A stretch of DNA of 64,000 bases from Flavobacteriales bacterium (GCA_016715895.1 JADJXH010000004.1:287522-351521); one strand, 5' to 3'. Shown: positions 8,045 to 64,000, counted from the stretch's first letter. Numbers and translations are program-made. The notes: generated from the sequence alone by a model not told the origin.

Positions 8045-8106
8045 CGGAAGCGCACAGGGCAAAGCTCGGCAAGCGGGACACCCGGGCGCGGGTCTATTTT
8101 TCGGGC

Positions 8107-9093: not shown

Positions 9094-9095
9094 TT

Positions 9096-9131
9096 CATGT
9101 GCACATGTGCTCATGAGCACATGTGCACATG
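9096..9131. terminator. Perfect 36-bp palindrome between the convergent moaA and NAP-like genes (candidate bidirectional terminator or protein-binding site)
   Basis: CATGTGCACATGTGCTCATGAGCACATGTGCACATG is its own reverse complement. It lies exactly between the moaA stop (9091-9093) and the minus-strand gene stop (9134-9136). Confidence 0.5.
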
Positions 9132-9133
9132 CC

Positions 9134-40329: not shown

Positions 40330-40402
40330 GCCGTTCCAGGCCGGGAACCTTGACGGGTGGATCCCGTATGCACGGCGCGAACCACCCCGCTCTTCGGTGG
40401 AC

Positions 40403-43400
40403 ATGACCGCCCGAACCCCCTTCCTGCACATGCGCCCGGCACTGGTCGTCGGCCTTGTCGTCCTGTGCCTGAGCAGTGCATCGGCCCAGGTCAACGGCCC
40501 GATGCCGACCCTCGGCACGGACCTGTGGACCGGCTTCATGCAGAACGCCTATGGTGCCCAGGAGACGCGGTTGTACATCAGCGCGCCCTCCGCCACCACT
40601 GGCACGGTGAGCATTCCCCAGACCGGCTGGAGCCAGGCCTTCAGTGTTCCGGCGAACGGGGTCGTGCAGGTGAACGTCCCCAACACCGCCGAACATGTCG
40701 GTTCCGAAACAGTGACCGGAAAAGGGGTCCGGATCCAGGCGGTCGCACCCGTGGCCGTCACCGCGGTGAGCTACCAGAGCTACACCCATGATGGCACCCA
40801 GGTGCTTCCGGTGGAAGCGCTGGGCACCGACTACTTCGCCGAGGCCTACCGCGGCCTCCCCGGGTTCAACGAATTCTACAAGAGCGAGCTGCTCATCGTG
40901 GCCACCACCGATGACACGGAAGTGGAGATCACCCCCAGCGTGAACACCGCCGGGGGGCGGCCCGCAGGCGTCCCCTTCACGGTGATGCTCGACGAGGGCC
41001 AGAGCTATCAGGTGCAATCGGCCCTGTCGTCGCTGGACCTCACGGGCACGCGCGTCCGGGCCACAGCGGCGAGCGGTCCCTGCCGTCCCTTCGTGGTGCT
41101 CAGCGGGAGCATGTGCGCCAATGTGCCGGTGGGCTGCCCGGCCTGCGACCACGTGGTGGAGCAGATGCTCCCACTGGAGCGCTGGGGCACCTCGTTCAAG
41201 ACCTTCCTGCCCGGCGGGATCTCCAATGCGACCGTGCGCGTCCTTGCCGGCCAGAACGGCACCAGCGTCACCGTGAACGGAGGCGCGCCCATCTCCCTGA
41301 ACGCCGGCCAGGCCCACGAACTGAACGGACTTGCAGGCACCGCGTGCATCAACGCGTCGGCGCCCGTCTCGGTGGTCGTCATCTATGAAGGGTACAACTG
41401 CGCCAACGCGGGCGACCCCTCGATGGTGGTGATCGAACCGGACGACCGCACGACCACCTCCACCACCTTCAGCACGGTGAGTTCGCCGCAGATCACCGGC
41501 CACCGGGTGGAACTGGTGGTGCCCACCGCCGTGGTGGGCCAGGTGGCCGTGGATGGCACAGCCGTGCCGGCCGGCAGCTTCACGGCCTTCGCCACGTGCC
41601 CCACCTGGTCGCATGCCAGCCGCACGATCACCTCGGGCACGCACCGCGTCACCGCTCCGCAGGGCATCCATGTGTACGCCACCGGCTTCGGCACGGGCGA
41701 GAGCTATGCGTTCAACGCCAACGCCACCGAGGTACCGGTGGTGGTGCAGGACTCGCTGCTGTGCGTGAACGGGCCGGTGACGTTGACCTCGCCCGAGCCC
41801 ATGGACAACCCGCAGTGGGAGGCCGCCAGCACACCGGGGGTGGTGCTCGCCAACGGGCTGAGCTACTCGTTCACACCCACCACCAACGACACGTACACGG
41901 TCTCCGGCACGGCACCGGGATCCACCTGTCCCCTGGAGTTCACGTTCCATGTCGGCATCCAGGTGCCCGTGACGGTGGAGGCCACGGCCAACGGAGGGAA
42001 CGCGGCCCAGATCTGCCAGTACCAGCCCGTGCAGCTCGGCACCACGCCGAACCTCGACCCCAATGCCTATGCGCTGAACTGGACACCGGCGGCCGTGGTG
42101 AGCGACCCCACCATCCCCGACCCGGTGGCCTATCCGATGACCACCACGTGGTTCAAGCTGAACGTGACCAGCCCACTGGGCTGCGGCAGCGCCACCGACA
42201 GTGTGCTCGTTCAGGTGACACCGAACACGGTGCACAGTGTGGAGGCCATCACGGCCGACAGCATCATCTGCCTGGGGGACGCGGTGCAACTGGGCACCCG
42301 CACGCAGCGGATGATCGGCTTCGACCCGTTGGACAACACCACCTCGGCGATGTGGGCCCAGGTGCAGGGCGGTGGCGTGAGCGGCACCTGTGGGGCGGTC
42401 AACGGCAACGCGCTCCTGTTCAATGGAACGGGCACGCGGCAGGCACGCACCACCCCCGCCAACGTGCCCCAGGGCGGCACCCTGATGTTCAGCCTGTGGA
42501 TCTCGGGCGGCACGGCACCCTGTGACGGTGCCGAACCCGGGGAGGACGTGGTGGTGGAATACAGCTTGAACGGGGTGGCCTGGACGGTGATCCAGACCTT
42601 GAACGAGTCGCAATACCCGGCCTTCACCCCGCTCACCCTGGCCATCCCGCCCGCCGCATGGTCCGCCGCCACGCACTTCCGCTGGCGCCAGCTGGCCAAC
42701 AGCGGTGCCGCGCAGGATGTGTGGGCACTGGACAACGTGACGCTCACCCGGGTGGACAACACCGGGGTGCCGCTCCTGTGGTCGCCTGGCGCCACGCTGA
42801 ACGATCCGACGAGCGCGAGCCCGGTGGCCACACCCCTGGCCGACACCTGGTACACCGTGGAGGCCACCAGCGGAACGGGATGCACGGTCAGCGATCCGGT
42901 GTTCGTCCAAGTGGCCCCGGCCTTCACCATCAACGCCGGGAATGACGTGCTGCTCTGCGGCGGCGGACAGATCCAGCTGCAGGCCACCGCCAGTTCCGGC
43001 CAGGGCATCCAATGGAGCTGGGCCCCGAACAACGGAAGCCTGAACAGCACGACCATCGCTGCGCCCATGGCCAGCCCCACCGCCACCACGACCTACACCG
43101 CCACGGCCACCAGCAGCATCGGATGCACGGCGAGCGATGCGGTGACCGTGACGATGGGGCCCCAATTGGGCCTCAGCCTCAGCGCCAGTGACCTCACGCT
43201 GTGCCAGGGGGAGAGCAGCCAGTTGAACGCCGTGATGCAGGGCACAGGGACCTTGCAGCTCCTCTGGAACAACGCCGGCAGCCTCAGCAGCGCCACCGCC
43301 CCGAACCCTGTGGCCACGCCAAGCGGGACGACCACCTACACGGCCACCCTCACGGACACGCAGACCGGCTGCAGCACCCAGGCCTCGATCACGATCGCGG

Positions 43401-52538: not shown

Positions 52539-53654
52539 TTGATCCGGCATTCATGATCTGGACTCAGGCTGCGTAACGAACGGTGTCTTTCTGGAACAGT
52601 GCGATGATGCGCTTGGGGTGTCGCTGGAGGGAACGCAGGAAGCGTGATGTGAAGAGTTCAAGCTGCCCCTTCTTGCGTGCTGGAGCGTGCTTGGTGACGG
52701 CATCCTTCAGCGCTGCGTTCGCTACTTCCACCGGGTTGAGTTCGGGCGAATAACTCGGCAGGTGGAAGACCTCGATGCTCTCCAGATGCTCCTCGAGCCA
52801 TTCCTTGACCGGCTTGCTGTGGTGGACCCTGAGGTTGTCCAAGATCAGGAACACCTTGTTGTCGCTATCCTTGACCAGTCTTCTCAGAAAGCCGATCAGG
52901 ATGCTGCTGTTCAGTGCGCCCTTGAAGACCATCCAGCGCATTTCCCCGCGATTGGTCACCGTGGAGATCACCGAACAGCCGTGGCGGTTGTGGTTCACCC
53001 TGACCACGGGAGTGTGGCCTCGCAGGGAGTAGCTGCGCCCGCGAACGTCATCACTGCGCAGACCGGTCTCATCGCCCCAGTGGATCACGGCACCTTCAGC
53101 CTTGGCACGTGCACGGATGGCCGGATAATCCTCGTGCAGCCACTTGCGCACCGCCTCCGGTCGCTGCTCGTAGGCCTTGCGCAGTGGCTTCTGCGGCGTA
53201 AATCCCCAGCGCTCCAGATAGAGCCCCACACTGCGTATGGCCAGCTTGCGGTCGTAGCGCCGCTCGATCAGCTCGCGCACCGCTTGCCGGTTCCACAACG
53301 CATAAGGCATTTTCAACTGATCGGGCGTTCTGTCACGGATCAGCCGTTGTGTCTCCTTCTCCTGCTCACTTGTCAGGATGCGTCCCTTGCCCACCGGGCG
53401 ACCGGTCTTCCACACACGAATGGCCTTCCAGCCACCGGCCTTGTACCGTTGCCAGGCTTCGTTCACCGTGTTGCGGGACATGCCACAGAGTTCGGCCGTT
53501 TCCTTCAGGCCCATGCCCTTGAGCCTGCATTGCACCGCCTGCCTACGACGCTCATTGAGCTCGGGCATCGACAGCTTCCTGGAGTCGTTCTCGCGCATGC
53601 CTCGGCAAGATCCACAGATCGTGCCGATCGTCCGCTATATCGATGCCGGATCAA
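52539..53654 (-). mobile_element. IS630-family insertion sequence (1,116 bp) with 12-bp terminal inverted repeats and TA target-site duplication
   Basis: Ends TTGATCCGGCAT (52539..52550) and ATGCCGGATCAA (53643..53654). Each is flanked by TA (52537-38 and 53655-56), the hallmark IS630/Tc1 target duplication. Interior is a single DDE transposase gene. Lower GC than the flanks. Confidence 0.75.
52564..53598 (-). CDS. IS630-family transposase (N-terminal HTH + DDE_3 domain)
   Basis: 344 aa. HTH 'ELCGMSRNTVNEAWQRYKAGG'. DDE_3 motifs 'VIHWGDETGLRSDD', 'FLILDNLRVHHSKPVKEWL', 'FHLPSYSPELNPVEVANAALK'. Confidence 0.85.
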   Translation of the reverse strand: MRENDSRKLSMPELNERRRQAVQCRLKGMGLKETAELCGMSRNTVNEAWQRYKAGGWKAIRVWKTGRPVGKGRILTSEQEKETQRLIRDRTPDQLKMPYALWNRQAVRELIERRYDRKLAIRSVGLYLERWGFTPQKPLRKAYEQRPEAVRKWLHEDYPAIRARAKAEGAVIHWGDETGLRSDDVRGRSYSLRGHTPVVRVNHNRHGCSVISTVTNRGEMRWMVFKGALNSSILIGFLRRLVKDSDNKVFLILDNLRVHHSKPVKEWLEEHLESIEVFHLPSYSPELNPVEVANAALKDAVTKHAPARKKGQLELFTSRFLRSLQRHPKRIIALFQKDTVRYAA

Positions 53655-53774
53655 TAAAGCCCCAAGCTTCAAAGGCGTGCCTTGGGCCTTGATGCTTGTA
53701 GCTTGAGAATTGAAGCTTCGCTCCCTCCCCTACCTTCGCCCTATTCACCTACGCCGAGGCTTCGGCGAATTACA

Positions 53775-55079
53775 ATGCGATACACACCGCTCTCTGCGTC
53801 CACCTACCGCGAGCACCGCGCCCGTTTCCGCCAGCACCTGGAGAAAGGGGGTCTGGCCGTGTTCCACAGCAACGACATCATGCCCACCAGCGCCGATGGC
53901 ACGATGCCGTTCAAGCAGGCCAGCGACATCTTCTACCTCACCGGCATCGACCAGGAGGAGACGATCCTGCTGCTGTTCCCTGATGCGGTGGACCCGAAGG
54001 ACCGCGAGATCCTCTTCGTGCGCGAGACCAGCGAGCTGATCGCGATCTGGGAGGGCGCCAAGTTCAGCCAGCAGGAGGCACGCGACCTGAGCGGCATCGC
54101 CACCGTGCTGTGGACGAGCAGCTACGAGGCCACGATCAAGCGCCTGGTGCCGCAGTGCGAGCACCTGTACCTGAACAGCAACGAGCACCTGCGCCAGCAC
54201 AACGAGGTGGAGACGCGCGAGGACCGCAAGAACAAGGAACTGCGCGCCCAGTACCCGCTGCACAGCGTGAAGCGCAGCGCGCCGATCATGCACCGCATCC
54301 GCAGCCGCAAGACGCAGGAGGAAGTGGCGCAGATGAAGCGCGCGATCGCCATCACCGGCAAGGCCTTCGAGCGGGTGTGCGGCTTCGTGAAGCCCGGCGT
54401 GAAGGAGTACGAGATCGAAGCGGAGATCACGCACGAGTTCCTGCGCAACGGCTCACGCGGCCATGCCTACACGCCCATCATCGCCAGCGGCTACAACGCC
54501 TGCGTGCTGCACTACATCACCAACGACCAGGTGTGCATCGATGGCGATGTGATCCTGATGGACTTCGGCAGCGAGTACGGCGGCTACGCCAGCGACCTCA
54601 CCCGCTGCATCCCCGTGAACGGCCGCTTCACCGACCGCCAGCGCGCGGTGTACAACGCCGTGCTCCGCGTGAAGAACGAAGCCACGCAACTGCTGCGTCC
54701 CGGCACCCTGCTGGCCGACTACCACAAGGAAGTGGGGAAGATCATGGAGAGCGAGCTGATCGGCCTGGGCCTGCTGGACAAGACCGATGTGGCGAAGCAG
54801 GACCCCGAGCGTCCGCTGTACAAGAAGTACTTCATGCACGGCACCAGCCACTTCCTGGGCCTGGATGTGCACGATGTGGGCCTGTGGAACGAGATGATCC
54901 AGCCGGACATGGTCTTCACCGTGGAGCCGGGCATCTACATCCGCGAGGAGAAGCTGGGCATCCGCTTGGAGAACAACATCCTGGTGACGCGCGACAACCC
55001 GATCGACCTGTTCGCGGACATCCCCGTGGAGGCGGAGGCGGTGGAGGAGTTGATGAGCCGGAGGAAGGTTGAGGCGTGA
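53775..55079 (+). CDS. pepP: Xaa-Pro aminopeptidase (M24B family, PepP-like)
   Basis: Creatinase/prolidase N-domain, then the M24 pita-bread metal-binding motifs 'DFGSEYGGYASDLTR', 'HGTSHFLGLDVHD', 'VFTVEPGIY'. Start trimmed to MRYTPLSAST. Confidence 0.85.
   Translation: MRYTPLSASTYREHRARFRQHLEKGGLAVFHSNDIMPTSADGTMPFKQASDIFYLTGIDQEETILLLFPDAVDPKDREILFVRETSELIAIWEGAKFSQQEARDLSGIATVLWTSSYEATIKRLVPQCEHLYLNSNEHLRQHNEVETREDRKNKELRAQYPLHSVKRSAPIMHRIRSRKTQEEVAQMKRAIAITGKAFERVCGFVKPGVKEYEIEAEITHEFLRNGSRGHAYTPIIASGYNACVLHYITNDQVCIDGDVILMDFGSEYGGYASDLTRCIPVNGRFTDRQRAVYNAVLRVKNEATQLLRPGTLLADYHKEVGKIMESELIGLGLLDKTDVAKQDPERPLYKKYFMHGTSHFLGLDVHDVGLWNEMIQPDMVFTVEPGIYIREEKLGIRLENNILVTRDNPIDLFADIPVEAEAVEELMSRRKVEA
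54966..55079. repeat. Direct repeat copy 1 (authentic 3' end of pepP incl. TGA)
   Basis: About 112 bp, ~96% identical to 56106..56217 (55-nt identical run, then 2 mismatches, a 38-nt identical run, 2 mismatches, then 'aggcgtga'). Confidence 0.85.
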
Positions 55080-55408
55080 GCGGCTCTGCTCTCCGGGTTC
55101 GTGGCATCGTTCGGAACGTGGGACGCACACTACAGTTCCTGCAACTGGGGCTCATCCTGTTCTTCGTGTACCACATCGTGGACGCATTCATCACGCCGTA
55201 TCAAAGCGAGTGGCTCACGGCTGAAGCCTTTGTACCCGGGCTTATCCTCGCGATCCTCTTCTACAGCTTCTGTCTGCTGGTCACCCAATGGGTCGTCGTG
55301 TTCGCGGAACACCGGCTTGCTTGGTTGCTCTTGATCCCGATCGCGGTGGTCACGCTGGTGCCCTTTGCACTCCTCCTGCTGGAGCCGATACGCGTGATGG
55401 GCGCGTGA
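55076..55408 (+). CDS. Small 3-TM membrane protein (hypothetical), first gene of the inserted cassette
   Basis: GTG start overlapping the pepP stop (GTGA). Three hydrophobic helices (LQLGLILFFVYHIV, FVPGLILAILFYSFCLLV, LAWLLLIPIAVVTLVPFALLLL). Confidence 0.45.
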   Translation: MSGSALRVRGIVRNVGRTLQFLQLGLILFFVYHIVDAFITPYQSEWLTAEAFVPGLILAILFYSFCLLVTQWVVVFAEHRLAWLLLIPIAVVTLVPFALLLLEPIRVMGA

Positions 55409-55446
55409 TCGCGCATGAGCCCTAGCATTGCATTTAACTTCGCTCC

Positions 55447-55776
55447 ATGCTCGCCGACCTGATCAACGGCCATCGTCAACAGTTCATCGACCTGTGCAAG
55501 GCGCACCGGGTAAAGGAACTGTATGCCTTTGGATCGGCGGTCAACGGCCCGTTCACGGCGCAGAGCGACGTGGACCTGTTGGTGGAGATCGAGCTGGACA
55601 ACCCCGTGGAGGATGGTGAACGGCTATGGTCGTTCTGGGATCGGATGGAAGCGTTCTTCCAGCGCAAGGTGGACCTGCTTACGCCCCGCTCTTTACAGAA
55701 CCCGGTGAAGAAGCGCGCCATCGAGGCCTCCAAGAAGCTGATCTACGATGGAGCGACTGGACGGCTACTATGCTGA
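55447..55776 (+). CDS. Nucleotidyltransferase (Pol-beta superfamily, MNT-type antitoxin)
   Basis: 'LYAFGSAVNGPFTAQSDVDLLVE' is the GSx9-13DxD minimal NTase motif. 109 aa. 3' end overlaps the HepT start. Confidence 0.75.
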   Translation: MLADLINGHRQQFIDLCKAHRVKELYAFGSAVNGPFTAQSDVDLLVEIELDNPVEDGERLWSFWDRMEAFFQRKVDLLTPRSLQNPVKKRAIEASKKLIYDGATGRLLC

Positions 55777-56086
55777 TATCCTTCGGGCCATTGACCTGAT
55801 CGAGGCCTTCATGGCCCAGGGGAATGTCTCCTCGTTCGAGGCATACACCCGGCACGCACTGGTGAAGAGCGCCGTGGAGCGCCAGCTTGGCATCATCGGT
55901 GAAGCAGTGAACAAGATCCGGAAGCTCGACCCGTCACATCCGATCCCCGAGGCGGACCGCATCGTGCAGTTCAGGAACCGGTTGATCCATTCGTACGATA
56001 CGATCGACGACACGTTCGTGTGGCCCATCCTCCAGAAGCACCTACCTGCTTTGAAGAACGCCATTCAGCAGGCGCGGAAGAGCTGA
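55748..56086 (+). CDS. HepT-like (DUF86) RNase toxin
   Basis: 112 aa, all-helical. Rx4HxY active-site motif 'RNRLIHSYD' near the C-terminus. Overlaps the MNT gene by 29 nt, the typical MNT-HepT arrangement. Confidence 0.75.
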   Translation: MERLDGYYADILRAIDLIEAFMAQGNVSSFEAYTRHALVKSAVERQLGIIGEAVNKIRKLDPSHPIPEADRIVQFRNRLIHSYDTIDDTFVWPILQKHLPALKNAIQQARKS

Positions 56087-56105
56087 ACACCTAGGGCAAA
56101 CGCGT

Positions 56106-56217
56106 GGAGAACAACATCCTGGTGACGCGCGACAACCCGATCGACCTGTTCGCGGACATTCCGGTGGAGGCGGAGGCGGTGGAGGAGTTGATGAGCCGGA
56201 GGAAGGTAGAGGCGTGA
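56106..56217. repeat. Direct repeat copy 2 (duplicate of the pepP 3' end, downstream of the cassette)
   Basis: See copy 1. Would encode the last 36 aa of PepP plus TGA. No upstream ORF continues into it in frame. Confidence 0.85.
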
Positions 56218-56237
56218 TCCGCTCCTCCATGCACCAG

Positions 56238-56265
56238 GGAGCCCCGCGAACGATCGCGGGGCTCC
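56238..56265. terminator. GC-rich hairpin between convergent units (candidate bidirectional terminator; likely the ancestral pepP terminator)
   Basis: GGAGCCCCGCG-aacgat-CGCGGGGCTCC: 11-bp perfect stem. Lies 21 nt after repeat copy 2 and 24 nt before the stop of the minus-strand cargo gene. Confidence 0.45.
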
Positions 56266-56288
56266 TATGGTCGAGATCGGGCCTGCCG

Positions 56289-58124
56289 CTACTCCTTCAC
56301 CACCATTCGGGTGAAGCGTGCTCCGCTGCCCATCACCTCACAGAGGTATACACCCTTTGCCAGGTCGCTCACATCAACGGCCGAGCGTTCACCGGAAGTG
56401 CGCATCGCACGGACGACGCGCCCGGAGGCATCACGCAGCGTGAGCTCGGCGCCAGCGGCGATACCCGGTGTCAGCACCACGAGCTGCTCGGTCGCCGGGT
56501 TGGGGAACACCTGAACCCCCATGGAGCGGCGGTGGTCCGACAATCCCACGGTGACGAGGTGCGGAGCACAAACGGACAAGGCGTTCTCCTCGGCGATGCC
56601 GAACACTTCGGCCATGCCGCCCACGTCGCCGATGACGCTGGCGAGCGCACTGTCCGCCGCGGCCTGCAGGGCGTTGACACTGGCCAGCGGACCGCCGGAG
56701 GGTGCTTGGGCGAAGAGGTAGGCGAACAGCAGGTCGGCATGTTCGCCGGACTCCAGAACGAAGGGTCCGGTGACGCCGATCATGCGGCGGTCGCCCGGTG
56801 TGTTGCCCTCACCCACCTCGGACCACGGCGCCTGTGCCGCACCATCCGTGCCCGCTCCGAGGGGATCGCTGTCGCCAGGGTACATGAACCGCGCTGGCAC
56901 CGCGTTCGGGTCCTGCGAGTACCCGTTCCCCCCGTAGGTCTGCGGCAGGCCGTCCAGCCATTGCCCGGCCAGGTAACGCTCCACATCAACGGCGGTCTGA
57001 GGGATGCCGGTGGCGCCGGATGCCGTGGAGTAGATGCGGCTGCTCGTGAGCCCGAAGCGCTCATTGTCGATCTGCTGGTCTGCAAAGCCCTGGCCGTTGA
57101 AGCCGGGGATGAGGGGAACGACCGGGTCGTCATTGCCATCGGCCTCCACCAGCGGACCCTTGATGAGCCGCACACCGAAGGCGGGGGGCTGGCCGCCATA
57201 GCCGGGGCCCCAGAAGGACGGACCATCGAATCCATCCCCGTTGTACGCGTACCACAGGTTGCGCGACGGGTCGGTCCCGATCATGTCATCCTCCGGGTCT
57301 CCCAGGTCGAAGTCGGTGTGCAACCCGATGCGCACATCGGTGTACGCGTTGCTGCTGCGGTTGATGACGTGCGCGCGCAGAAAGAGCGTGTTGGCCAGTT
57401 CGGGGTCGTTCGTATCGAAGACGAAGGGCATCAACCTGAGCTCGATGCCGAGCGGCGGACCCTGCGAGAAACTGTGCGGCCGTTGGTCGTTCAGCACCAT
57501 GAAGCAGGCACGATCGCCCAGGATGCAGGGCACATCACCGAAGGCCGGATCGTAGGTGCCATCCCCATCGCGGTCCACGAACGGTGCCTGATAGGGGGCC
57601 AGGCCGAGGGCGATATCCCCCATCGCCGGCCAGTCGAGCAGGGACTGCGCGGGTTGGTATCCAGGGTACACGAGGGCCTCCTCGCAATCGGGGTCGTCCA
57701 CACAGTCGTGGTAGTTCAGGTGCTGTTCGATGTCGAAGCGCTCCACGCACCAGATGCGGTCGTAGGCCTGGGCCACACCGGGCAGGGCGGTGGCGGAGCC
57801 GTCGGTGGTGAGCGGACCGGTCCAATAATCGGAATCGAACAGACCTCCATAGTCCGCCCCGGCGGCATGCAGCGTATCACCCGGACCACGCCCGGTGACC
57901 CACAATCCGCTGCCCCAGAGGACATGGGCGCCCGTTCCCGGCGGCACTTCGAACGCGGGGCTGGCCCCATCGGCCCCCGCACCGATCAAGCCCCAGGAGG
58001 TGAGCCCCACCTCCAGGCGGTCGTTCCCGATGGATGTGATCGCGGTGCCCTGTGCGGTCCCGTCAACGGGGATCGCCCAGGCATGCGCGGACAACAGCGC
58101 GAGGCAGAGTGAAGATCGGATCAT
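56289..58124 (-). CDS. T9SS cargo protein (hypothetical body, type-A C-terminal sorting domain)
   Basis: Signal peptide 'MIRSSLCLALLSAHAWA'. Asp/Gly-rich body. C-terminus 'VFPNPATEQLVVL...LTLRDASGRVVRAM...LAKGVYLCEV' is a Por_Secre_tail. Confidence 0.65.
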   Translation of the reverse strand: MIRSSLCLALLSAHAWAIPVDGTAQGTAITSIGNDRLEVGLTSWGLIGAGADGASPAFEVPPGTGAHVLWGSGLWVTGRGPGDTLHAAGADYGGLFDSDYWTGPLTTDGSATALPGVAQAYDRIWCVERFDIEQHLNYHDCVDDPDCEEALVYPGYQPAQSLLDWPAMGDIALGLAPYQAPFVDRDGDGTYDPAFGDVPCILGDRACFMVLNDQRPHSFSQGPPLGIELRLMPFVFDTNDPELANTLFLRAHVINRSSNAYTDVRIGLHTDFDLGDPEDDMIGTDPSRNLWYAYNGDGFDGPSFWGPGYGGQPPAFGVRLIKGPLVEADGNDDPVVPLIPGFNGQGFADQQIDNERFGLTSSRIYSTASGATGIPQTAVDVERYLAGQWLDGLPQTYGGNGYSQDPNAVPARFMYPGDSDPLGAGTDGAAQAPWSEVGEGNTPGDRRMIGVTGPFVLESGEHADLLFAYLFAQAPSGGPLASVNALQAAADSALASVIGDVGGMAEVFGIAEENALSVCAPHLVTVGLSDHRRSMGVQVFPNPATEQLVVLTPGIAAGAELTLRDASGRVVRAMRTSGERSAVDVSDLAKGVYLCEVMGSGARFTRMVVKE

Positions 58125-58401
58125 GGCAACAGGGTTTGCCGCCAACCTATCGGAAGGTGAAGCGACCCGCATGCGCCGATCGACGGAAGGCGGTATCGGT
58201 TCAGGGACCGGTGCGGGAGAACGGCTCAGCTGCGCTCCCCGGTTGCGCCGGGCACCAGCACAAAGACCACCTCGACCTCTTTGCCGGCCGTGGTGCCGCT
58301 CTCGAAAGGAACATGGGCCATGCCGTTGCGATCGATGCGCAGCACATTGCCCACGATGGTGAGGGCCCGGTAAGAGGGAATGACGGCGGCGGGTGCGTGC
58401 A

Positions 58402-58767
58402 TCAGACGGCGCGGCGCAGGTGGATGGGCTTCACCGTGCTCACTTCGCCATCGAGCACCATCAGGAAATACTCCTCCCCATCCAGGTCGGTGATGCGCAC
58501 GCGCGTGACGGGTCCACTGACATCGCCGGTCTTGACGATCCGGCCGCTGGGGTCCACGATGTCGAACAGCGCATCCTGGGAGGCGGGGTCATAGTCGAAC
58601 ATCAGCAGGCGCTCGAGCTGGTCGATGCGCACGTGGATCTCGTGGGGGGTGGTGTGCTGGGCCATGGGCCTGTTCTTCACCCCGTTGTACGACATCATCG
58701 GGGGCAGGGTTGCCCAAGAACGCCGGAGGGCCGGCCCACCACCCGGCGGACCGACCCTCCACACCAA
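58402..58767 (-). CDS. Small hypothetical protein (~97-121 aa)
   Basis: Coding-like ORF. Probable start at MMSYNG or MAQHTT. An overlapping 59-aa ORF (ATG at 58410-58412, 'MHAPAAVIPSYRALTIVGNV...') continues downstream. No recognisable domain. Confidence 0.3.
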   Translation of the reverse strand: MVWRVGPPGGGPALRRSWATLPPMMSYNGVKNRPMAQHTTPHEIHVRIDQLERLLMFDYDPASQDALFDIVDPSGRIVKTGDVSGPVTRVRITDLDGEEYFLMVLDGEVSTVKPIHLRRAV

Positions 58768-58995
58768 AACCTGACATGAGCACTGCGCGGTTCAACTGCC
58801 CTGGTCGGAGAAGATCCAGAGCTTGTGATGGGAGTTCATGGAAGCCATGGCAACAAGGGGTTTGCGTTCAATGGTGACCCCAACCTACCATGCCCGACGC
58901 CCGATCGCCAGCGCGATCCGGGCAACGGTCGCGACGAAGAGAAGAACGGTCGCTCCGGTGGTGCCGCTATTTTCGCCGGCATGGGGTCGCGGCGG

Positions 58996-59754
58996 ATGCG
59001 GGCATTGATCGTGGACGATGAGGAACCGGCCCGGGAGAACCTGCGCCTGATGCTGGAGGACCTCTGCCCCGAGGTGGAGGTGGCGGGAACGGCCGATGGA
59101 CCGGCGAGCGCGCGCGAGCGGATCGCGGAGCTTGACCCCGACCTGCTCTTCCTGGACATCCGCATGCCCAGTGGCACCGAGGGCCTCGACCTGCTGGCCG
59201 AGCTCCGCGACCTGCGCGCCCTGGTCGTCTTCGTCACGGCCTTCAAGGACTACGCGCTGCAGGCCTTTCACACCCATGCGGTGGACTACCTGTTGAAGCC
59301 GATCGATCCCGATGAGCTGCGGGCGGCGGTGATGAAGGCCCTCGAGCGGGTGCGTGAACAGCATGAACGGCCAGCGGAGGCCACGGCGTATCGCGCAAGG
59401 TTGAACGCCGCCGTCCGCGAGGCCTCGCTGCCCGCGGGCCGCATCGTGATCGATCACGCCAAAGGGTTCAAGCTCTTCGACCCGCACAACATCAGCCACC
59501 TGGAGGCCGAGGGCAACTGCACCCAGCTGCACTTCAGCGATGGCACGCGCTACCTCGACACCCGCACCCTGCGTGTGTATGAGGAACTGCTCGATCCGTC
59601 CTTGTTCCTGCGGGTGCATCGCTCGCACATCGTGAACCTGGAGCACCTGCGTGAATACCTGCGCGACGACGGCCATTGGGCGGTGCTCCGCGACGGGCGG
59701 AGGGTCCCGATCGCTCGCGAGCGCGTGGCCGAGTTCCTCGAACGCGTCCGCTGA
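58996..59754 (+). CDS. Response regulator, LytTR family (REC + LytTR DNA-binding domain)
   Basis: REC 'MRALIVDDEEPARENL...LLFLDIRMP...VVFVTAF'. LytTR 'HLEAEGNCTQLHFSDGTRYLDTRTLRVYEELLDPSLFLRVHRSHIVNLEHL'. Start trimmed to MRALIV. Confidence 0.85.
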   Translation: MRALIVDDEEPARENLRLMLEDLCPEVEVAGTADGPASARERIAELDPDLLFLDIRMPSGTEGLDLLAELRDLRALVVFVTAFKDYALQAFHTHAVDYLLKPIDPDELRAAVMKALERVREQHERPAEATAYRARLNAAVREASLPAGRIVIDHAKGFKLFDPHNISHLEAEGNCTQLHFSDGTRYLDTRTLRVYEELLDPSLFLRVHRSHIVNLEHLREYLRDDGHWAVLRDGRRVPIARERVAEFLERVR

Positions 59755-59864
59755 CGGTCCACATGGCCGGGATGACGGTCCGCTCGATCGGGCGCACCGG
59801 TCAGGCGACGGTCACCCAAGCCACCGCGGACCGACCTAGCTTGAGCCCACCAAACCCATCGGCC

Positions 59865-60617
59865 ATGCGTGTACTGATCGTGGACGACGAACCCGACGCC
59901 CGGGAGAACCTGCGGATGATGCTGGAGGAGCACTGCCCCGACCTGGTCGTGGTGGGCTCGGCGGGAAGCGCCCAGGAGGCGCGCGAACTGATCGCGATGG
60001 AACACCCGCAGGCGCTCTTCCTCGACATCAAGATGCCGGGAGAGGATGGCTTTGCGCTGCTTCATTCCCTGCAAGGGCAGGAGCTTCCGGTGGTCTTCAC
60101 CACCGCCTACGACGAATATGCGCTGCAGGCCTTCAAGGAGAACGCCCTGGACTACCTCGAGAAGCCGATCGATGTGGAGGAGCTCAAGCGGGCGGCCGCA
60201 AAGCTCCGCCGCATGGCGTCGGACCCCGCGGCCGCACCGCAACAGACCGGTGCCATCGCGGCGCTGCTCCTGGACCCCGCCTCCCCCTTGAGCAAACGCA
60301 TGGCCGTTCCGGGTCGCGACGGGCTCACCTTGGTGAAGCATGAGGACATCCTCTACCTGGAGGCCAGCGACAGCTACACCACCATCCACACACGCGACGG
60401 CAAGCGGCAGATCAGCAGCAAGCACATCCGGGTCTTTGAGAACAACCTGGACCCGAAGCGCTTCTTCCGCGTCCACAAGTCATACATCATCAACCTGGAG
60501 CACCTGCGCGCGTTCAGCCGGGGGGAAGGCAACATGGCCGTGCTGGACAACGGCGCCATGATCCCCGTTTCGCGCCGCAAAATGCCCGACTTCCTTGCCC
60601 TGATCCCCACCTTCTGA
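59865..60617 (+). CDS. Response regulator, LytTR family (second, tandem copy)
   Basis: REC 'MRVLIVDDEPDARENL...ALFLDIKMPGEDG...VVFTTAY'. LytTR 'YLEASDSYTTIHTRDGKRQISSKHIRVFENNLDPKRFFRVHKSYIINLEHL'. Stop overlaps the HK start. Confidence 0.85.
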   Translation: MRVLIVDDEPDARENLRMMLEEHCPDLVVVGSAGSAQEARELIAMEHPQALFLDIKMPGEDGFALLHSLQGQELPVVFTTAYDEYALQAFKENALDYLEKPIDVEELKRAAAKLRRMASDPAAAPQQTGAIAALLLDPASPLSKRMAVPGRDGLTLVKHEDILYLEASDSYTTIHTRDGKRQISSKHIRVFENNLDPKRFFRVHKSYIINLEHLRAFSRGEGNMAVLDNGAMIPVSRRKMPDFLALIPTF

Positions 60618-63600
60618 TGCGGCGCACGGGCTTGCTGCTCGGGCTGTTGCTCGGTTCCATGGGCCTGCTGCGGGCCCAGCAGTTCGGCTTCATCCACTAC
60701 ACCACCAGGGACGGGCTCGCCCAAAGCCAGGTGCGCACGATCGCACAGGATGAGCAGGGCTTCCTCTGGATCGGCACACTGGGCGGCGTGAGCCGGTTCG
60801 ACGGCAGCGGGTTCCGCAACCACGCCCTGCAACAGGGGTTGCCCGATGCGCAGGTGAACGCCCTTCTTCCGCGTCCCGACGGCTCGATGTGGTGCGGCAC
60901 CGGAGGAGGCCTCGTGAGCTTCAGGCACGGCACGGAGGTGATCCCCATCCCGCTGCCGGGCCTCGACCGCCCGCGCATCACCGCCCTGGCCACGGATGCG
61001 CGTGGGCGGGTGCTGATCGGGGTGGAGGACCGGGGTGTGCTGGTGCACGAGGACGGCAGGGTGCATGGTCTGGAGGGCTTTCCCACAGATACCGCCGGTA
61101 CGGTGCGATCGCTGCTCTGCCTGGCGGATGGCACCGTCTACATCGGCCTGCGCAATGGCCTGCTCCGATGGGCCGATGGCCGCTGCACGACCGTGATCCT
61201 GGGCCGCGAGGACCGCTCCAACGTGAGCAGCATGGCCGCAGGCGAGGATGGCACCCTTTGGGTGGCCACGTTCGGACAAGGGGTCTTCGCGCTCCGGCCC
61301 GATGGCACCGTGGAGGAGATCGATGAGACCGACGGGCTCCTGCAGAACAATGTGCGCAGCGTGACGATCGATCGCCAGGGCCGCGTGTGGCTGGCCAGCA
61401 AGTTCGGCGTCAACGTCATCGAAGGCGGCCGCATCCGGGCGCTCACGGTGAACCAGGGCATGCCGAACGACAACATCTGGTGCGTATCGGTGGACGACAA
61501 TGGCGACCTGTGGCTCGGAACGGATGGAGCGGGGATCCTGCGCTGGACCGGGGACCGGTTCGTCACCTACACGCAGCGCGATGGATTGTGCAGCGATCAG
61601 GTGATGTGCCTGGTGGCCGACAGCGCGAACGACCTGTGGTTGGGCACATATGGCAACGGGATCTGCCGGATGGATGGCATGGCGCTGGTGAGCACGTTGG
61701 ACGGGCTGCCGAACAACACCGTATGGACCGGGCTGCGGCGCCGGGACAACAGCCTGTGGTTCGGCACCAGCGACGGGTTGTGCAGGCTGCGCAACGGCGT
61801 GGTGGTGCCGCTTCCGGACAGCTTGTCCCTTCGGGATGAACGCATCGTTGCCCTGCACGAGGACCCCGACGGCACGCTGTGGTGCGGCGCCCGGGAAGGG
61901 CTCTTCTCGATCCGCGAGGACCGGTTGCGGCGGGAACCCGGGCCGCCCGGCGTACCGCTCCGGTCCATCCGGGCCCTGCATCGCGACGGCGATGGCCGCT
62001 TATGGGTGGCCCATGAGGTGGGCGTGGCGCGGCGGGGCGCGAACGGCTGGACGACATGGGCCGCCGGGCGGGAGCTCCCGACCGGGGCGGTGTACTGCCT
62101 GGCCGAGGACCGCCGCGGAAGGGTCTGGGCCGGCACCGCGGACGGGCTGGTCTGCTTCACCGGATCCGGCCCTCGTGTGCTCCGCCTGGCACCGGACTTC
62201 GGCTCCAACTACATCGACCTGCTGCGTGTCACGAGCGACGGACGGATCTGGGTGGGCACCAACAACGGCCTGTTCCAGGTGGCACCGGACAGCCTGCTGA
62301 CCACCGGGGGCGGGGTGACCCACTACACCAGCAGCGACGGGCTGCTGAGCCTGGAGTGCAACCTGAACGCATCGCATCTGGACACCAAGGGCCGGCTGTT
62401 CTTCGGCACTTCGCGCGGCCTGGTCCTGCATCCGCCCGCATCCGAGCCCACCCGGCACACGGACGTCATCCCGCTCCACATCACCGGCCTGCGCTGGTTC
62501 CTCCGACCCTCGGGCTGGGAAGGGCGGTCCACCGGTACCGACCGCTTTTCGGGGCTTCCCACAGGCCTTCTGCTCCCCTACGAACGCAACCACCTGACCT
62601 TCGATTTCACCGGCATCAGCCTGAGCGCGCCCGAACAGGTGGTCTACCGCTATCGCCTGCTGGGCCATGACAATGACTGGCTGCCGGAAACGGACGTGCG
62701 ATCGGCGAGTTTCAGCAACCTGCCCCACGGTCACTACGTGTTCCAAGTGATGGCCAGGGGGCGCAACGGCCGATGGAGCCCACCGAAGGAATACGCATTT
62801 GATGTACAGCCGCCGTTCTGGGCCCGGTGGTGGTTCTTCGCGCTCACCGGGGCGGTGGTGATCGGCTCGGTGGGCGGTGTGGCCCGGTATCGTTCCGTTC
62901 AGCGTCATCGCCTGGAGCGCACCCGCCAGTTGATGCTCCGGTCACGCATGCTCCAGCTCGAGCAGCAGGCATTGAACGCCAACATGAACCGGCACTTCAT
63001 CTTCAATGCCCTGAACAGCATCCAGTTCCACATCAACAAACAGGACCGGGCCACGGCGAACCGCTATCTCACGAGCTTCGCCAAGCTCATCCGCAAGAAC
63101 CTCGATGCCAGCCAGAGCGACACCACTTCCCTGGCCGAGGAGCTCGAACGACTGGAGCTGTACCTCGTCCTGGAGCACATGCGCTTCAAGGACCGCTTCC
63201 GCTACATCCTGACGGTGGATCCGGGGGTGGACACGCTCCAGGTGCGGTTGCCGGCCATGATGCTGCAGCCCTACGTGGAGAACAGCATCTGGCATGGCAT
63301 CCTGCCCACCGAGCGCCAAGGTCAGGTCACCATCCGGGTCGACCCGGGAGAGGCCGGCCGGGTGCGGGTCATTATCGCCGATGATGGGCTGGGCATCGAA
63401 CAGAGCAAGGCGCGCAAGCAGAGCGGTGACCACATCTCCAGGGGGATCGAGATCACCAAAGGCCGGGCGGACGTGCTGCGGAACCTCCAAGTGACGGACA
63501 TCAGGATCACCGGTCCCGAGCAGGTGCAGGGCGCGGACGGTCGGATCATGGGCACACAGGTCACCATCGACCTGCCGAGCAACGGTCCATCCCCTTCCAC

Positions 63601-63649
63601 CGGTCCGGATTTGCGATCCGGCCCCGGGCACCTTACCTTTGGAACATGA
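60617..63649 (+). CDS. LytS/YehU-type sensor histidine kinase with periplasmic two-component-regulator beta-propeller + Y_Y_Y domain
   Basis: Signal peptide. Many 'DG.LW.GT..GL' propeller repeats. Y_Y_Y 'YRYRLLGHDNDWLP'. TM 'WWFFALTGAVVIGSVGG'. His_kinase (PF06580) box 'MNRHFIFNALNSIQFHI'. HATPase 'ENSIWHGI...IADDGLGI'. Confidence 0.85.
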   Translation: MRRTGLLLGLLLGSMGLLRAQQFGFIHYTTRDGLAQSQVRTIAQDEQGFLWIGTLGGVSRFDGSGFRNHALQQGLPDAQVNALLPRPDGSMWCGTGGGLVSFRHGTEVIPIPLPGLDRPRITALATDARGRVLIGVEDRGVLVHEDGRVHGLEGFPTDTAGTVRSLLCLADGTVYIGLRNGLLRWADGRCTTVILGREDRSNVSSMAAGEDGTLWVATFGQGVFALRPDGTVEEIDETDGLLQNNVRSVTIDRQGRVWLASKFGVNVIEGGRIRALTVNQGMPNDNIWCVSVDDNGDLWLGTDGAGILRWTGDRFVTYTQRDGLCSDQVMCLVADSANDLWLGTYGNGICRMDGMALVSTLDGLPNNTVWTGLRRRDNSLWFGTSDGLCRLRNGVVVPLPDSLSLRDERIVALHEDPDGTLWCGAREGLFSIREDRLRREPGPPGVPLRSIRALHRDGDGRLWVAHEVGVARRGANGWTTWAAGRELPTGAVYCLAEDRRGRVWAGTADGLVCFTGSGPRVLRLAPDFGSNYIDLLRVTSDGRIWVGTNNGLFQVAPDSLLTTGGGVTHYTSSDGLLSLECNLNASHLDTKGRLFFGTSRGLVLHPPASEPTRHTDVIPLHITGLRWFLRPSGWEGRSTGTDRFSGLPTGLLLPYERNHLTFDFTGISLSAPEQVVYRYRLLGHDNDWLPETDVRSASFSNLPHGHYVFQVMARGRNGRWSPPKEYAFDVQPPFWARWWFFALTGAVVIGSVGGVARYRSVQRHRLERTRQLMLRSRMLQLEQQALNANMNRHFIFNALNSIQFHINKQDRATANRYLTSFAKLIRKNLDASQSDTTSLAEELERLELYLVLEHMRFKDRFRYILTVDPGVDTLQVRLPAMMLQPYVENSIWHGILPTERQGQVTIRVDPGEAGRVRVIIADDGLGIEQSKARKQSGDHISRGIEITKGRADVLRNLQVTDIRITGPEQVQGADGRIMGTQVTIDLPSNGPSPSTGPDLRSGPGHLTFGT

Positions 63650-63957
63650 TGGTCCGGAACCTCATCGTCTTCCTGCTCATGGTGGTGGCCTTGGCCGCCT
63701 GCACCAAGGAGCAGGTCGCGCCTGCAGGAGAGGTGCTGACCGGAGAGGACAAGCGTCTGCAGCAGGGACCGAACGAGGCTGACCACGGTTCGACGTCCAT
63801 CCTGAAGGAAGAGCCGCAGAGCTCGGAAGGCATTCTGCGCTCCGGTGACCTCGATGAGCAGGGGGGCGAGGACGACGGTGACATCTCCGATGATGGGGAT
63901 GAGGATGCCGATGGTGAGCGCAACAAGAAGAAGAACATCGGTTCGTCAGGGAACTGA
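63646..63957 (+). CDS. Small acidic lipoprotein (hypothetical)
   Basis: ATGA overlap with the HK stop. Lipobox 'LMVVALAACT'. Asp/Glu/Gly-rich tail. 103 aa. Confidence 0.4.
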   Translation: MMVRNLIVFLLMVVALAACTKEQVAPAGEVLTGEDKRLQQGPNEADHGSTSILKEEPQSSEGILRSGDLDEQGGEDDGDISDDGDEDADGERNKKKNIGSSGN

Positions 63958-64000
63958 ACCTGACGAACGAACGTGATCGACGCCCTGGTCTGGTCCAGGG

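Follow-up and report, generated by a model that had tools for sequence, protein, structure and literature searches.

The BT4663-type hybrid sensors of Bacteroides fuse a HisKA/HATPase transmitter, a receiver and an AraC output in a single chain, and the LytS, BtsS and YpdA kinases sense via 5TMR-LYT and GAF membrane domains. In the agr, comCDE and plnABCD systems, LytTR regulators bind direct repeats spaced by about 21 bp, regulate their own genes and directly target a small peptide gene; pln has two such regulators in tandem. AlgR often binds single sites that lie far from the promoter. To our knowledge, almost nothing is known of LytTR regulators in Bacteroidota, and RRNPP systems have been described in Firmicutes and their phages. 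RusR (BT2802) activates the ribose utilisation locus (rus) of Bacteroides thetaiotaomicron and is needed for its induction (10.1101/574913).

The locus that we compare with these systems lies in a window of 64,000 nucleotides from a Flavobacteriales bacterium (GCA_016715895.1 JADJXH010000004.1:287522-351521), the window being the whole stretch of DNA that was analysed. Across 80 species-level genomes, and all genomes compared are MAGs, the gene order is M24 peptidase, (T9SS cargo), UP58, UP85, micro-ORF, (RR1), RR2, HK, lipoprotein and TPR protein. Judged by this comparison, the locus is a conserved, clade-specific module of uncultured Flavobacteriales built on a common Bacteroidota two-component type. 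The two regulators, the 1,010-aa sensor kinase (HK), the overlapping lipoprotein gene and the two divergent small ORFs described in a first-pass annotation are all present, and the larger divergent ORF, given there as 121 aa, actually encodes 87 aa (58402..58665). The features of the locus are as follows, counted from the first nucleotide of the window.

58226..58402, minus strand: UP58, 58 aa, overlapping the UP85 stop
58402..58665, minus strand: UP85, 87 aa, beta-rich and very strongly conserved (homologues of 85-87 aa)
58686..58711, minus strand: conserved AACC-N17-CGTA motif, some 46 nt upstream of the UP85 ATG
58725..58760, minus strand: G+C-rich, terminator-like RNA hairpin of about 15-16 bp, 31 nt past the micro-ORF stop
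58761..58782, minus strand: G/U-rich stretch, GCTCATGTCAGGTTTTGGTGT in the window and TTGGTTTGGTGGTGG in the family, directly 5' of the hairpin
58792..58848, minus strand: micro-ORF of 18 codons, MASMNSHHKLWIFSDQGS-stop, from translation and conservation
58880..58887, minus strand: -7 box TAGGTTGG of the micro-ORF promoter, matching the Bacteroidetes TAnnTTTG, 39 nt before the ATG
58924..58953, no strand assigned: AACGGTCGC-N12-AACGGTCGC, a perfect direct repeat of 21-nt period, read on the minus strand as GCGACCGTT...GCGACCGTT
58981..59754, plus strand: RR1, LytTR response regulator, 257 aa when read from its conserved ATG, from Pfam and orthologue starts
59753..59783, plus strand: GACGGTCCAC-N11-GACGGTCCGC, a second direct repeat of 21-nt period, between RR1 and RR2
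59865..60617, plus strand: RR2, LytTR response regulator, 250 aa, from Pfam, adjoining HK
60617..63649, plus strand: HK, sensor kinase, 1010 aa, from Pfam
63646..63957, plus strand: small acidic lipoprotein, 103 aa, its start overlapping the HK stop as ATGATG

HK proves to have the PF06580 core and the Reg_prop/Y_Y_Y sensor that the first-pass annotation had assigned to it, with Pfam matches to Reg_prop (9e-55), Y_Y_Y (2.3e-14) and His_kinase PF06580 (2.4e-18, residues 782-861). The Pfam match to HATPase_c is weak (19.8 bits against a cut-off of 26.4), and the ATP-binding N box (N889) and G1 box (D922/G924/G926) are present despite this sub-cut-off score. The protein is laid out as a signal or anchor peptide, a double beta-propeller with Y_Y_Y in the periplasm, a single TM helix (~733-758), the PF06580 His_kinase and an ATPase domain. 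Residues 20-735 align to the BT4663-type sensor 4a2l (E 4.6e-52) and residues 789-934 to PDB 6swj, 'Histidine kinase' (E 4.6e-17), and His793 (in NRHFIFNALNSIQ), Asn889 and the D922/G924/G926 box are invariant in 23 orthologues. The succession of Reg_prop repeats, Y_Y_Y and membrane helix is that of a Bacteroidota Reg_prop/Y_Y_Y sensor, with the same double beta-propeller (Reg_prop) and Y_Y_Y as in the BT4663-type hybrids (PDB 4A2L/4A2M; also 3V9F, 3OTT/3VA6). In contrast to those hybrids, HK has a PF06580 transmitter, with LytTR regulators as outputs on separate chains; Pfam finds no Response_reg or HTH_AraC match in its 1010 aa, so that it is not an HTCS fusion. The core also places HK beside LytS/LytR, BtsS/BtsR (YehU/YehT) and YpdA/YpdB, which likewise combine a PF06580 core and its conserved phospho-acceptor His with Response_reg+LytTR partners, encoded here by two adjacent upstream genes. 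Unlike LytS, BtsS and YpdA, however, HK has a periplasmic domain of 715 aa, and with no Pfam match to 5TMR-LYT it is not a LytS proper.

This combination of sensor and transmitter had been called unusual in the first-pass annotation, a view that wider comparison does not support. HK residues 640-1010 match 12,381 cluster representatives at E<=1e-30, and the best 150 of these, down to 37% identity, are alike in size (~960-1030 aa) and in match position (~620-1000); among these 150, all nine of the most distant representatives tested have Reg_prop, Y_Y_Y and His_kinase. The same three Pfam families occur in every one of the best 120 full-length HK homologues. The layout is common in Bacteroidota, with at least 150 clusters (50% identity) of like architecture, and as a standard design of this phylum it needs no further attention. 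The kinase with which HK had been compared, given as 4930..8044, is an ORF that extends over 4930..9183 on the minus strand.

Both response regulators are intact in the window. RR1 matches Response_reg at 1.5e-21 and LytTR at 9.6e-16, RR2 at 4e-24 and 6.6e-22, and both receivers, as read from their sequences, retain the acidic pair, the phospho-acceptor Asp54, the Thr and the Lys; by these features neither is a pseudogene, a possibility that had been raised as a check on the earlier description. BtsR is the top NCBIfam match of both (6.9e-45 for RR2, below the cut-off), and the scores of both fall short of the BtsR and the LytR cut-offs. RR1 most likely starts at 58981 (MGSRRMRALIV...) and not at 58996 as given earlier, because a conserved ATG follows closely on a TAyTTTCG box across orthologues, 5 nt after the box (58968..58975) in the window and ~6-8 nt past it in the others. 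RR2 ends and HK begins within a shared TGATG. RR2 orthologues are found in every related locus (58-98% identical), and RR1 orthologues (59-96% identical) are present in 26 loci and absent from 41. This distribution, together with an identity of 44% between RR1 and RR2 and their reciprocal monophyly, argues against a recent duplication and for an old one that was followed by repeated loss of RR1.

Between UP85 and RR1 lies the micro-ORF, which the first-pass annotation overlooked inside the very interval that it proposed for an operator search (58768..58995). It is found in 64 of 72 species-level genome loci in identical place and on the identical strand, and 36 of the 37 metagenome contigs with its codon pattern have the same neighbour genes. 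The family peptides are 18-22 aa long, with an N-terminus that varies in sequence and length, in frame across the 64 loci, and an invariant W-I-F-x-D-Q-G-x-stop end. Third positions vary synonymously at the D, Q and G codons (GAT32/GAC28, CAG28/CAA20 and GGC32/GGG21/GGT5/GGA2), and three stop codons are used at the fixed position (TGA39/TAG16/TAA5). This codon-level pattern indicates selection acting on the peptide itself. The micro-ORF and RR2 share the start context AAACCCCTTGTTGCC-ATG. The peptide has no Pfam or NCBIfam match and contains no signal peptide, double-glycine leader or hydrophobic segment; we found no relevant literature for the peptide motif, for PF06580+PF07494 or for LytTR+propeller in Flavobacterium. 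Comparative sequence analysis shows the ORF, the promoter layout and the hairpin, and the predicted product is a new micro-protein, strongly conserved and overlooked by gene callers.

The -7 box stands at -29 to -41 from the micro-ORF ATG in most loci, commonly at -37 to -39. The LytTR direct repeat sought in the interval mentioned above is indeed there, as the perfect repeat at 58924..58953. It is unique in the window (chance expectation 0.03), precedes the micro-ORF promoter and abuts the RR1 promoter too, and we regard it as a candidate LytTR operator of the micro-ORF promoter. The suggestion that the divergent small ORFs are targets is partly right: this candidate operator fronts the micro-ORF and not directly the 87-aa ORF. 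Within the family, 59 of 64 loci have a proximal site CCGTTGCTCG, and 49 have a CCGTT-like distal site that lies 20-22 nt farther upstream; in 55 of 57 loci, exactly 31 nt separate the operator from the -7 box. The CCGTT core is identical to the one in the AlgR site consensus of Pseudomonas aeruginosa, CCGTTCGTC (PMC4064291), which the family sites CCGTTGCTCGTTC and CCGTTCGCTC resemble. The sites here differ from those of AlgR in that they come as pairs 21 nt apart, at a constant distance of 31 nt from the -7 box.

The second repeat, at 59753..59783, is also unique in the window (chance expectation 0.00). A third copy, GACGGTCACC, can be read at ~59807..59816, family equivalents (CCGTTCGCTCGATC and CGATCCGCTC) stand at the same place, and loci with one regulator have CCGTT-N16-CCGTT before RR2. 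This repeat is a candidate operator for autoregulation of RR2-HK, although in the window its core reads CGGTC, not CCGTT, and it does not keep to the 31-nt rule in its distance from the putative RR2 promoter. The other CCGTT-N16-CCGTT matches in the window (36518 and 41255) were dismissed as operators because they lie inside ORFs of 1535 aa and 1669 aa. A scan for sigma-70 promoters and terminators returned no sigma-70 consensus, as expected for Bacteroidota, and the promoter calls are therefore made purely from motif knowledge. The conserved TGGCAACAAGGGGTTTGC upstream of the micro-ORF ATG was considered as a sigma-54 promoter and rejected by inspection, as the GG-to-GC distance is 15 nt, not 12, and the strand is wrong.

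Direct repeats of ~21 bp before both the peptide gene and the regulator genes are, at the level of sequence, the arrangement of a peptide-LytTR circuit, and the likeness to agr, comCDE and plnABCD extends to the small peptide gene, the tandem LytTR regulators (pln) and the predicted autoregulation. Unlike those systems, the locus lacks an HPK10 polytopic kinase, a leader-bearing precursor and a dedicated exporter, the peptide having no export leader and the conserved gene set no transporter. Overall, the micro-ORF appears to be the main target of the adjacent two-component system.

Downstream of the micro-ORF, the hairpin has a dG of -34.5 kcal/mol (single sequence), and its alignment shows 15 pairs, six of them with compensatory changes, and many G-U pairs that are workable only on the minus-strand RNA; the U-tract after it is weak in many loci. 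In its strict form, the G/U motif has a single occurrence in each of 20 loci, on the minus strand every time, and none elsewhere in 1.5 Mb; loci without the ORF retain the G/U stretch. An Rfam scan of 54000..64000 at E<=1 gave no family. Farther on, UP85 has 228 homologues, all 'hypothetical' and, where named, from Flavobacteriales MAGs, with 70-93% identity among the 120 homologues listed and a mean column identity of 79%. Its AF2 model shows five strands with a pLDDT of 52, too poor for a fold search. UP85 stands beside the regulators in most loci and is adjoined by UP58 in many related ones (37-88% identity by tblastn), and neither protein has a Pfam or NCBIfam match. The AACC-N17-CGTA motif is found in 52 of the 52 loci listed, 27-69 nt before the estimated UP85 start, and is kept also in loci without the micro-ORF. 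It looks like an ECF-sigma-type promoter, and UP85 and UP58 appear to have a promoter of their own behind the terminator-like hairpin.

At the other end of the locus, the translational coupling of the lipoprotein to HK described in the first-pass annotation is seen in the ATGATG overlap, and the lipoprotein is conserved. Its lipobox Cys precedes T-K-E, and ISDDGDxDADGERNKKK forms a conserved C-terminus. After the kinase, ~57 of 66 loci examined have a small ORF (46-116 aa) whose end is an ISDDGDD-type motif, a lipobox being scored by regex in 42; C-[ST]-K-E-E and ISDDGDDxxDxE[RK]xxKK recur in the family, and in most loci this ORF starts within the HK stop. The lipoprotein has no Pfam or NCBIfam match. 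Downstream of it, beyond the window, a conserved TPR protein is encoded, which aligns end to end with NCBIfam NF058569 (RusR/BT2802; E 6.9e-37, 5-506 of 519 residues) at a score of 127.6 bits, far under the 550-bit cut-off. By this profile it is a distant RusR (BT2802) homologue and not a family member by the NCBI criterion, and unlike RusR it has no ribokinase, SusC/D or permease genes near its locus. Its model is nearest to the Rap/NprR peptide receptors, with generic TPR proteins scoring almost equally. Neither sequence nor profile comparison of the TPR protein with the PDB gave anything meaningful, and its N-terminal 150 residues matched no family. In contrast to the RRNPP systems (Rap, NprR, PlcR, AimR), the TPR protein has no detectable sequence similarity to their receptors and the peptide has no export signal.

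The presence of the micro-ORF and that of the TPR gene are closely matched: among 67 loci with enough flank, 59 have both, five neither, two the micro-ORF only and one the TPR gene only, and this last locus carries a WILSDQGS variant that the regex missed. By HMM search, the TPR gene is absent from six ORF-less loci, which keep the promoter, the candidate operator, the G/U stretch, the hairpin, UP85, RR2 and HK, and three sister loci keep both genes. The two loci with only the micro-ORF have no TPR gene within 10 kb.

On balance, we lean towards a two-component system that regulates its own genes and activates a gene for a small peptide, which probably works together with the TPR regulator. 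HK would sense a periplasmic cue via its double beta-propeller/Y_Y_Y, possibly with the co-translated lipoprotein, and by analogy with the homologous Bacteroides hybrid sensors this cue could be a glycan fragment. As is usual in the family, HK would phosphorylate RR2, and RR1 where present, and the phosphorylated LytTR regulators would bind the CCGTT repeats of 21-bp period, as suggested by geometry, conservation and likeness to the AlgR site. Because one repeat pair precedes RR2-HK, binding there would give positive autoregulation. As the main output, the pair fixed 31 nt from the -7 box would drive a transcript of ~150 nt that encodes the 18-22-aa W-I-F-x-D-Q-G-x peptide and ends at the conserved hairpin; its G/U-rich 3' part may have a separate RNA function. 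Most likely, the peptide would then act intracellularly with the RusR-like TPR protein, as short peptides do on Rap/NprR-type TPR receptors. This is the weakest step, and the evidence for it consists of one or two joint losses in a nine-tip clade, one rearranged locus and the fold similarity. The fuller proposal, in which the TPR regulator has the peptide as its cognate ligand or partner inside the cell and the pair is wired as the output of the two-component system and carried on a dual-function small RNA, is speculative and rather unlikely.

The transcript might instead be mainly a regulatory sRNA, with the G/U stretch as seed, the hairpin as terminator and the ORF secondary. Both RNA elements are conserved in sequence, locus-specific and persistent where the ORF is lost, and in several loci a complementary CCAAACC/CCAACCACC is seen by inspection immediately before the start codons of RR2 and UP85; yet codon-level selection on the peptide itself and the lack of an Rfam match make this unlikely as the whole account, and it can coexist with our preferred reading as a dual-function RNA. 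The variable N-terminus and the invariant last eight residues and stop might also suggest a cis-acting leader, in which a TnaC/SecM-like stall at the stop would control hairpin read-through into UP85-UP58. These genes do lie downstream on the same strand with the terminator-like hairpin between, and the W-x3-D spacing of the peptide resembles the W12-D16 spacing of the TnaC arrest peptide. However, the hairpin begins 31 nt past the stop, beyond the ribosome footprint, UP85 has its own conserved promoter-like motif past the hairpin, and six loci retain the hairpin, UP85 and the candidate operator after decay of the ORF, the distant TPR gene being what was lost with it, and we hold a leader to be somewhat less probable still than a predominant sRNA.

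A further reading takes the peptide for an exported autoinducer sensed by the HK propeller, which would amount to an agr/com/pln-like quorum-sensing loop in a Gram-negative. The candidate LytTR operator before a small peptide gene, the predicted autoregulation of the regulators and their tandem arrangement, which recalls PlnC/PlnD, would all fit. But the peptide has none of the export features listed above, the conserved module has no exporter or processing gene and HK is not of the HPK10 type; moreover, the peptide end is invariant while the sensor domains are only ~50% identical, unlike diversifying pherotypes, and such a loop seems very improbable. Least credible of all is an ordinary two-component system with its targets elsewhere, the micro-ORF and repeats being conserved non-coding sequence with an ORF by chance. 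Spurious ORFs are frequent here since the genomes are high in G+C, but chance would hardly produce D, Q and G codons whose variation is synonymous throughout, all three stops at a fixed position and an in-frame N-terminus of variable length over 64 loci, nor the fixed promoter-operator geometry.

Set against the described systems, the locus is a clean example of a Bacteroidota LytTR regulon that lends itself to testing. If the fuller proposal is true, it would provide a Bacteroidota peptide/TPR-receptor pair analogous to Rap-Phr, NprR-NprX and ComR-XIP of Firmicutes. Should the link between peptide and TPR protein hold, peptide-receptor signalling of the RRNPP kind would reach beyond Firmicutes, and a two-component system would pass its signal to a second, cytoplasmic regulator via a tiny peptide. 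The locus also gives a first hint on the ligand that the poorly understood RusR-type TPR regulators might recognise.

Every ORF that the first-pass annotation listed for this locus was found in the window, and the genes of the locus are as follows.

58226..58402, minus strand, UP58, a small ORF divergent from the regulators
58402..58665, minus strand, UP85, a second small divergent ORF
58996..59754, RR1, first tandem response regulator (Pfam Response_reg 1.5e-21, LytTR 9.6e-16)
59865..60617, RR2, second tandem response regulator (Response_reg 4e-24, LytTR 6.6e-22)
60617..63649, HK, 1010-aa propeller sensor kinase (Reg_prop 9e-55, Y_Y_Y 2.3e-14, His_kinase PF06580 2.4e-18)
63646..63957, plus strand, small lipoprotein

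The kinase core belongs to PF06580, as first proposed, with a HATPase_c match below the Pfam threshold, and neither regulator is a pseudogene, as the acidic pair, Asp54, Thr and Lys of active receivers can be read in both sequences, which are 44% identical to each other. Stop and start codons overlap at two junctions, in TGATG between RR2 and HK and in ATGATG between HK and the lipoprotein. Across 23 orthologues, His793, Asn889 and the DxGxG box of HK are unchanged, and the cytoplasmic half shows almost no variation.

The combination of this sensor with a LytS-type transmitter had been called unusual, but HK belongs to a very common class of kinases and is ordinary within it. Among the candidates scored, over 4,185 proteins are homologous to full-length HK at E<=1e-10, and the best 120 of these are all approximately 1000 aa long and all contain PF07494, PF07495 and PF06580, under the source names "two-component regulator propeller domain-containing protein" or [quoted passage not shown]. 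Searching 1.84 billion cluster representatives with HK residues 640-1010 (Y_Y_Y, TM helix and kinase) gave 12,381 matches at E<=1e-30; the same layout runs through the best 150 of these (to 37% identity), which are proteins of ~960-1030 aa aligned from Y_Y_Y on (~620-1000), and all 9 of the most distant matches tested among them carry Reg_prop, Y_Y_Y and His_kinase. A literature search on the Reg_prop/Y_Y_Y and PF06580 combination found no paper discussing such proteins. Solved structures of Bacteroides hybrid-system sensors (4a2l) are homologous to the periplasmic part of HK (E 4.6e-52). The kinase offered for comparison at 4930..8044 is in fact a longer ORF (4930..9183, minus strand, 1417 aa), 24% identical to HK across the propeller region and with a regulator gene alongside at 4298..4933 (whole region 4298..9183, minus strand).

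With one genome taken per species, scanning gave 80 related loci. Their sources are without exception MAGs of uncultured Flavobacteriales or Bacteroidota, and one locus (L004) is 98% identical to the window. The gene order that recurs starts with aminopeptidase P (M24), with a T9SS cargo gene after it in some loci; next come UP58 and UP85, in opposite orientation, and then RR1 (where the locus has it), RR2, HK, the small lipoprotein and a protein of ~520 aa. RR2 is universal among related loci, while RR1 is present in 26 and missing from 41. The phylogeny suggested for dating the regulator duplication makes it old, with repeated loss of RR1, because RR1s and RR2s form reciprocally monophyletic groups and the RR2s from two-regulator loci do not form a clade of their own. 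In several genomes, RR1 and RR2 are separated by 2-7 kb insertions, among them an rve integrase fragment (L002 at 4313..4750, and L012, L022, L059 and L061), and RR1 remains on the side of the micro-ORF (described below) and UP85 in these split loci. UP85 has 228 homologues, all labelled hypothetical, whose named sources are Flavobacteriales MAGs; identity among the 120 listed is 70-93%, so UP85 is better conserved than HK, and its AF2 model is poor. In the window, the T9SS cargo (56289..58172, minus strand, 627 aa, with a C-terminal sorting domain) separates the aminopeptidase from UP58 and, being found in only some related loci, is probably outside the module. In addition, an IS element encoding a DDE_3 transposase with HTH domains (52564..53598, minus strand) lies just upstream of aminopeptidase P (53682..55079), and a HepT-like (HEPN) ribonuclease toxin gene of 112 aa occupies 55748..56086 (plus strand; PF01934 at 3.9e-19).

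Alignment of the UP85-to-regulator spacers revealed conserved blocks, one ending in a minus-strand ATG, which opens an ORF of 18-22 codons whose N-terminus varies and whose end is always W-I-F-x-D-Q-G-x-stop. The elements of this region and of the RR1-RR2 spacer are given below.

58686..58711, minus strand, AACC-N17-CGTA motif
58725..58760, 15-bp G+C-rich hairpin
58792..58848, minus strand, micro-ORF, product MASMNSHHKLWIFSDQGS
58880..58887, TAnnTTTG-like box, TAGGTTGG
58924..58953, plus strand, perfect direct repeat AACGGTCGC-N12-AACGGTCGC, unique in the window (0.03 expected by chance)
59753..59783, repeat pair before RR2, GACGGTCCAC-N11-GACGGTCCGC (0.00 expected by chance)

The micro-ORF is present in 64 of the 72 genome loci with enough upstream sequence. 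In the 60 distinct nucleotide versions, the amino acids at the Trp, Asp and Gly codons are constant, third positions vary freely (GAT 32/GAC 28; CAG 28/CAA 20; GGC 32/GGG 21/GGT 5/GGA 2) and a stop is always present, in any of the three forms (TGA 39, TAG 16, TAA 5), the pattern expected when selection acts on a peptide that is translated. A codon-pattern scan of metagenomes found 37 contigs, and UP85 and/or the regulators adjoin in 36, so the micro-ORF is exclusive to this module. It is absent from the public gene calls shown for three related loci (L001-L003), and its peptide has no match in Pfam, NCBIfam or the literature. The ATG context AAACCCCTTGTTGCC is common to the micro-ORF and the RR2 of two-regulator loci; AAACCC(C)TTGTnGCC-ATG, which precedes the micro-ORF (58849..58863) and RR2 (59847..59864) here and in related loci, may be a translation-initiation context peculiar to this clade, whose bacteria do not use Shine-Dalgarno sequences.

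The TAnnTTTG-like box, a match to the known Bacteroidetes -7 element, lies at about -39 from the micro-ORF ATG; a proximal site, CCGTTGCTCG(TTC), occurs in 59 of 64 loci, exactly 31 nt upstream of the box in 55 of 57, and a second CCGTT-like half-site follows 20-22 nt beyond it in 49. Known LytTR operators (AgrA, ComE, PlnC/D) consist of 9-10-bp direct repeats that recur every ~21 bp, and the operator search proposed for 58768..58995 yielded a perfect direct repeat of this style. CCGTT is also the core of the AlgR consensus, CCGTTCGTC (PMC4064291). Before RR2, other two-regulator loci have CCGTTCGCTCGATC or CGATCCGCTC, and one-regulator loci have CCGTT-N16-CCGTT ~30 nt upstream of a TATCTTTTCG box. 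Judged by their sequence, the repeats before the micro-ORF and RR2 are candidate regulator-binding sites. Two other copies of CCGTT-N16-CCGTT (36518..36543 and 41255..41280, both minus strand) are each contained in a very long ORF (35675..40282 and 40397..45406) and are probably coding repeats, not operators.

Downstream of the micro-ORF stop there is a conserved G/U-rich stretch, a motif found in a single copy per locus and 0 times elsewhere in 1.5 Mb, and then, ~31 nt after the stop, the hairpin, which shows compensatory changes in 6 pairs, many G-U pairs possible only in minus-strand RNA, and a modest U-tract after it. The AACC-N17-CGTA motif follows, 27-69 nt before the UP85 start in 52 of the 52 loci listed, and resembles an ECF-sigma-type promoter; no sigma or anti-sigma gene was found in the conserved module. 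With the hairpin and this promoter-like motif ahead of UP85, the micro-ORF and UP85-UP58 seem to be transcribed separately, the former as a short unit.

At the other end of the module, a small ORF (46-116 aa) ending in an acidic motif lies directly 3' of HK in ~57 of 66 loci examined, its start usually overlapping the kinase stop; by the regex applied, 42 have a lipobox. After the lipobox Cys come [ST]-K-E-E and a variable middle, and the C-terminal ISDDGDDxxDxE[RK]xxKK is invariant. The Cys-x-K-(D/E)2 start resembles the Bacteroidetes surface-lipoprotein export signal, and ISDDGDDxxDxE looks like a calcium-binding DxDxDG loop. The ~520-aa cytoplasmic protein is encoded 70-100 nt further on, just beyond the window end (from L004). 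Its 128 homologues are labelled hypothetical or TPR, and its Pfam TPR matches are sub-threshold only. AF2 predicts an all-helical protein with confidence (pLDDT 88.8), for which Foldseek gives nothing beyond weak, generic TPR matches. It aligns end to end with the NCBIfam family of BT2802 (RusR) at E 6.9e-37, far below the family cut-off. Genetic evidence supports RusR as the activator of the ribose locus in B. thetaiotaomicron, and it is described as differing from the PUL regulators known so far (10.1101/574913).

The micro-ORF and the TPR gene occur together: in 67 loci with enough flank, both are present in 59, neither in 5, the ORF alone in 2 and the TPR gene alone in 1, and this last locus has a WILSDQGS variant missed by the regex. 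Six loci without the ORF in the UP85-RR2 spacer (L034, L039, L042, L054, L055 and L056) belong to a 9-tip clade in which the remaining three tips have kept both genes. The TPR gene is missing from these six, as an HMM search confirmed, but they retain the operator, promoter, G/U stretch, hairpin, UP85, RR2 and HK. This joint loss, which amounts to one or two independent events, argues for a link of the peptide with the TPR protein and against one with control of UP85 in cis; a stalling leader peptide is rated lower, since the ORF is lost where UP85 is kept. That the G/U stretch and hairpin persist in ORF-less loci suggests that this 3' RNA module has a function of its own and would suit a transcript acting purely as a small RNA, but the codon variation, which points to selection on the peptide, places that reading lower as well. 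An exported autoinducer is also rated lower. In the chain of events that the evidence supports, the propeller kinase would sense a periplasmic cue, perhaps with the lipoprotein, and transfer phosphate to RR2 and RR1, which would bind the CCGTT repeats, leading to autoregulation and induction of the micro-ORF transcript. For the step beyond this, joint action of the peptide and the RusR-like TPR protein is our best available guess.

Overall, the real value of this locus lies beside the kinase, in a micro-gene that is conserved but unannotated and has a LytTR-type promoter of rigid layout, and in a TPR partner resembling RusR. Together these would constitute a new form of LytTR-controlled small-peptide circuit.
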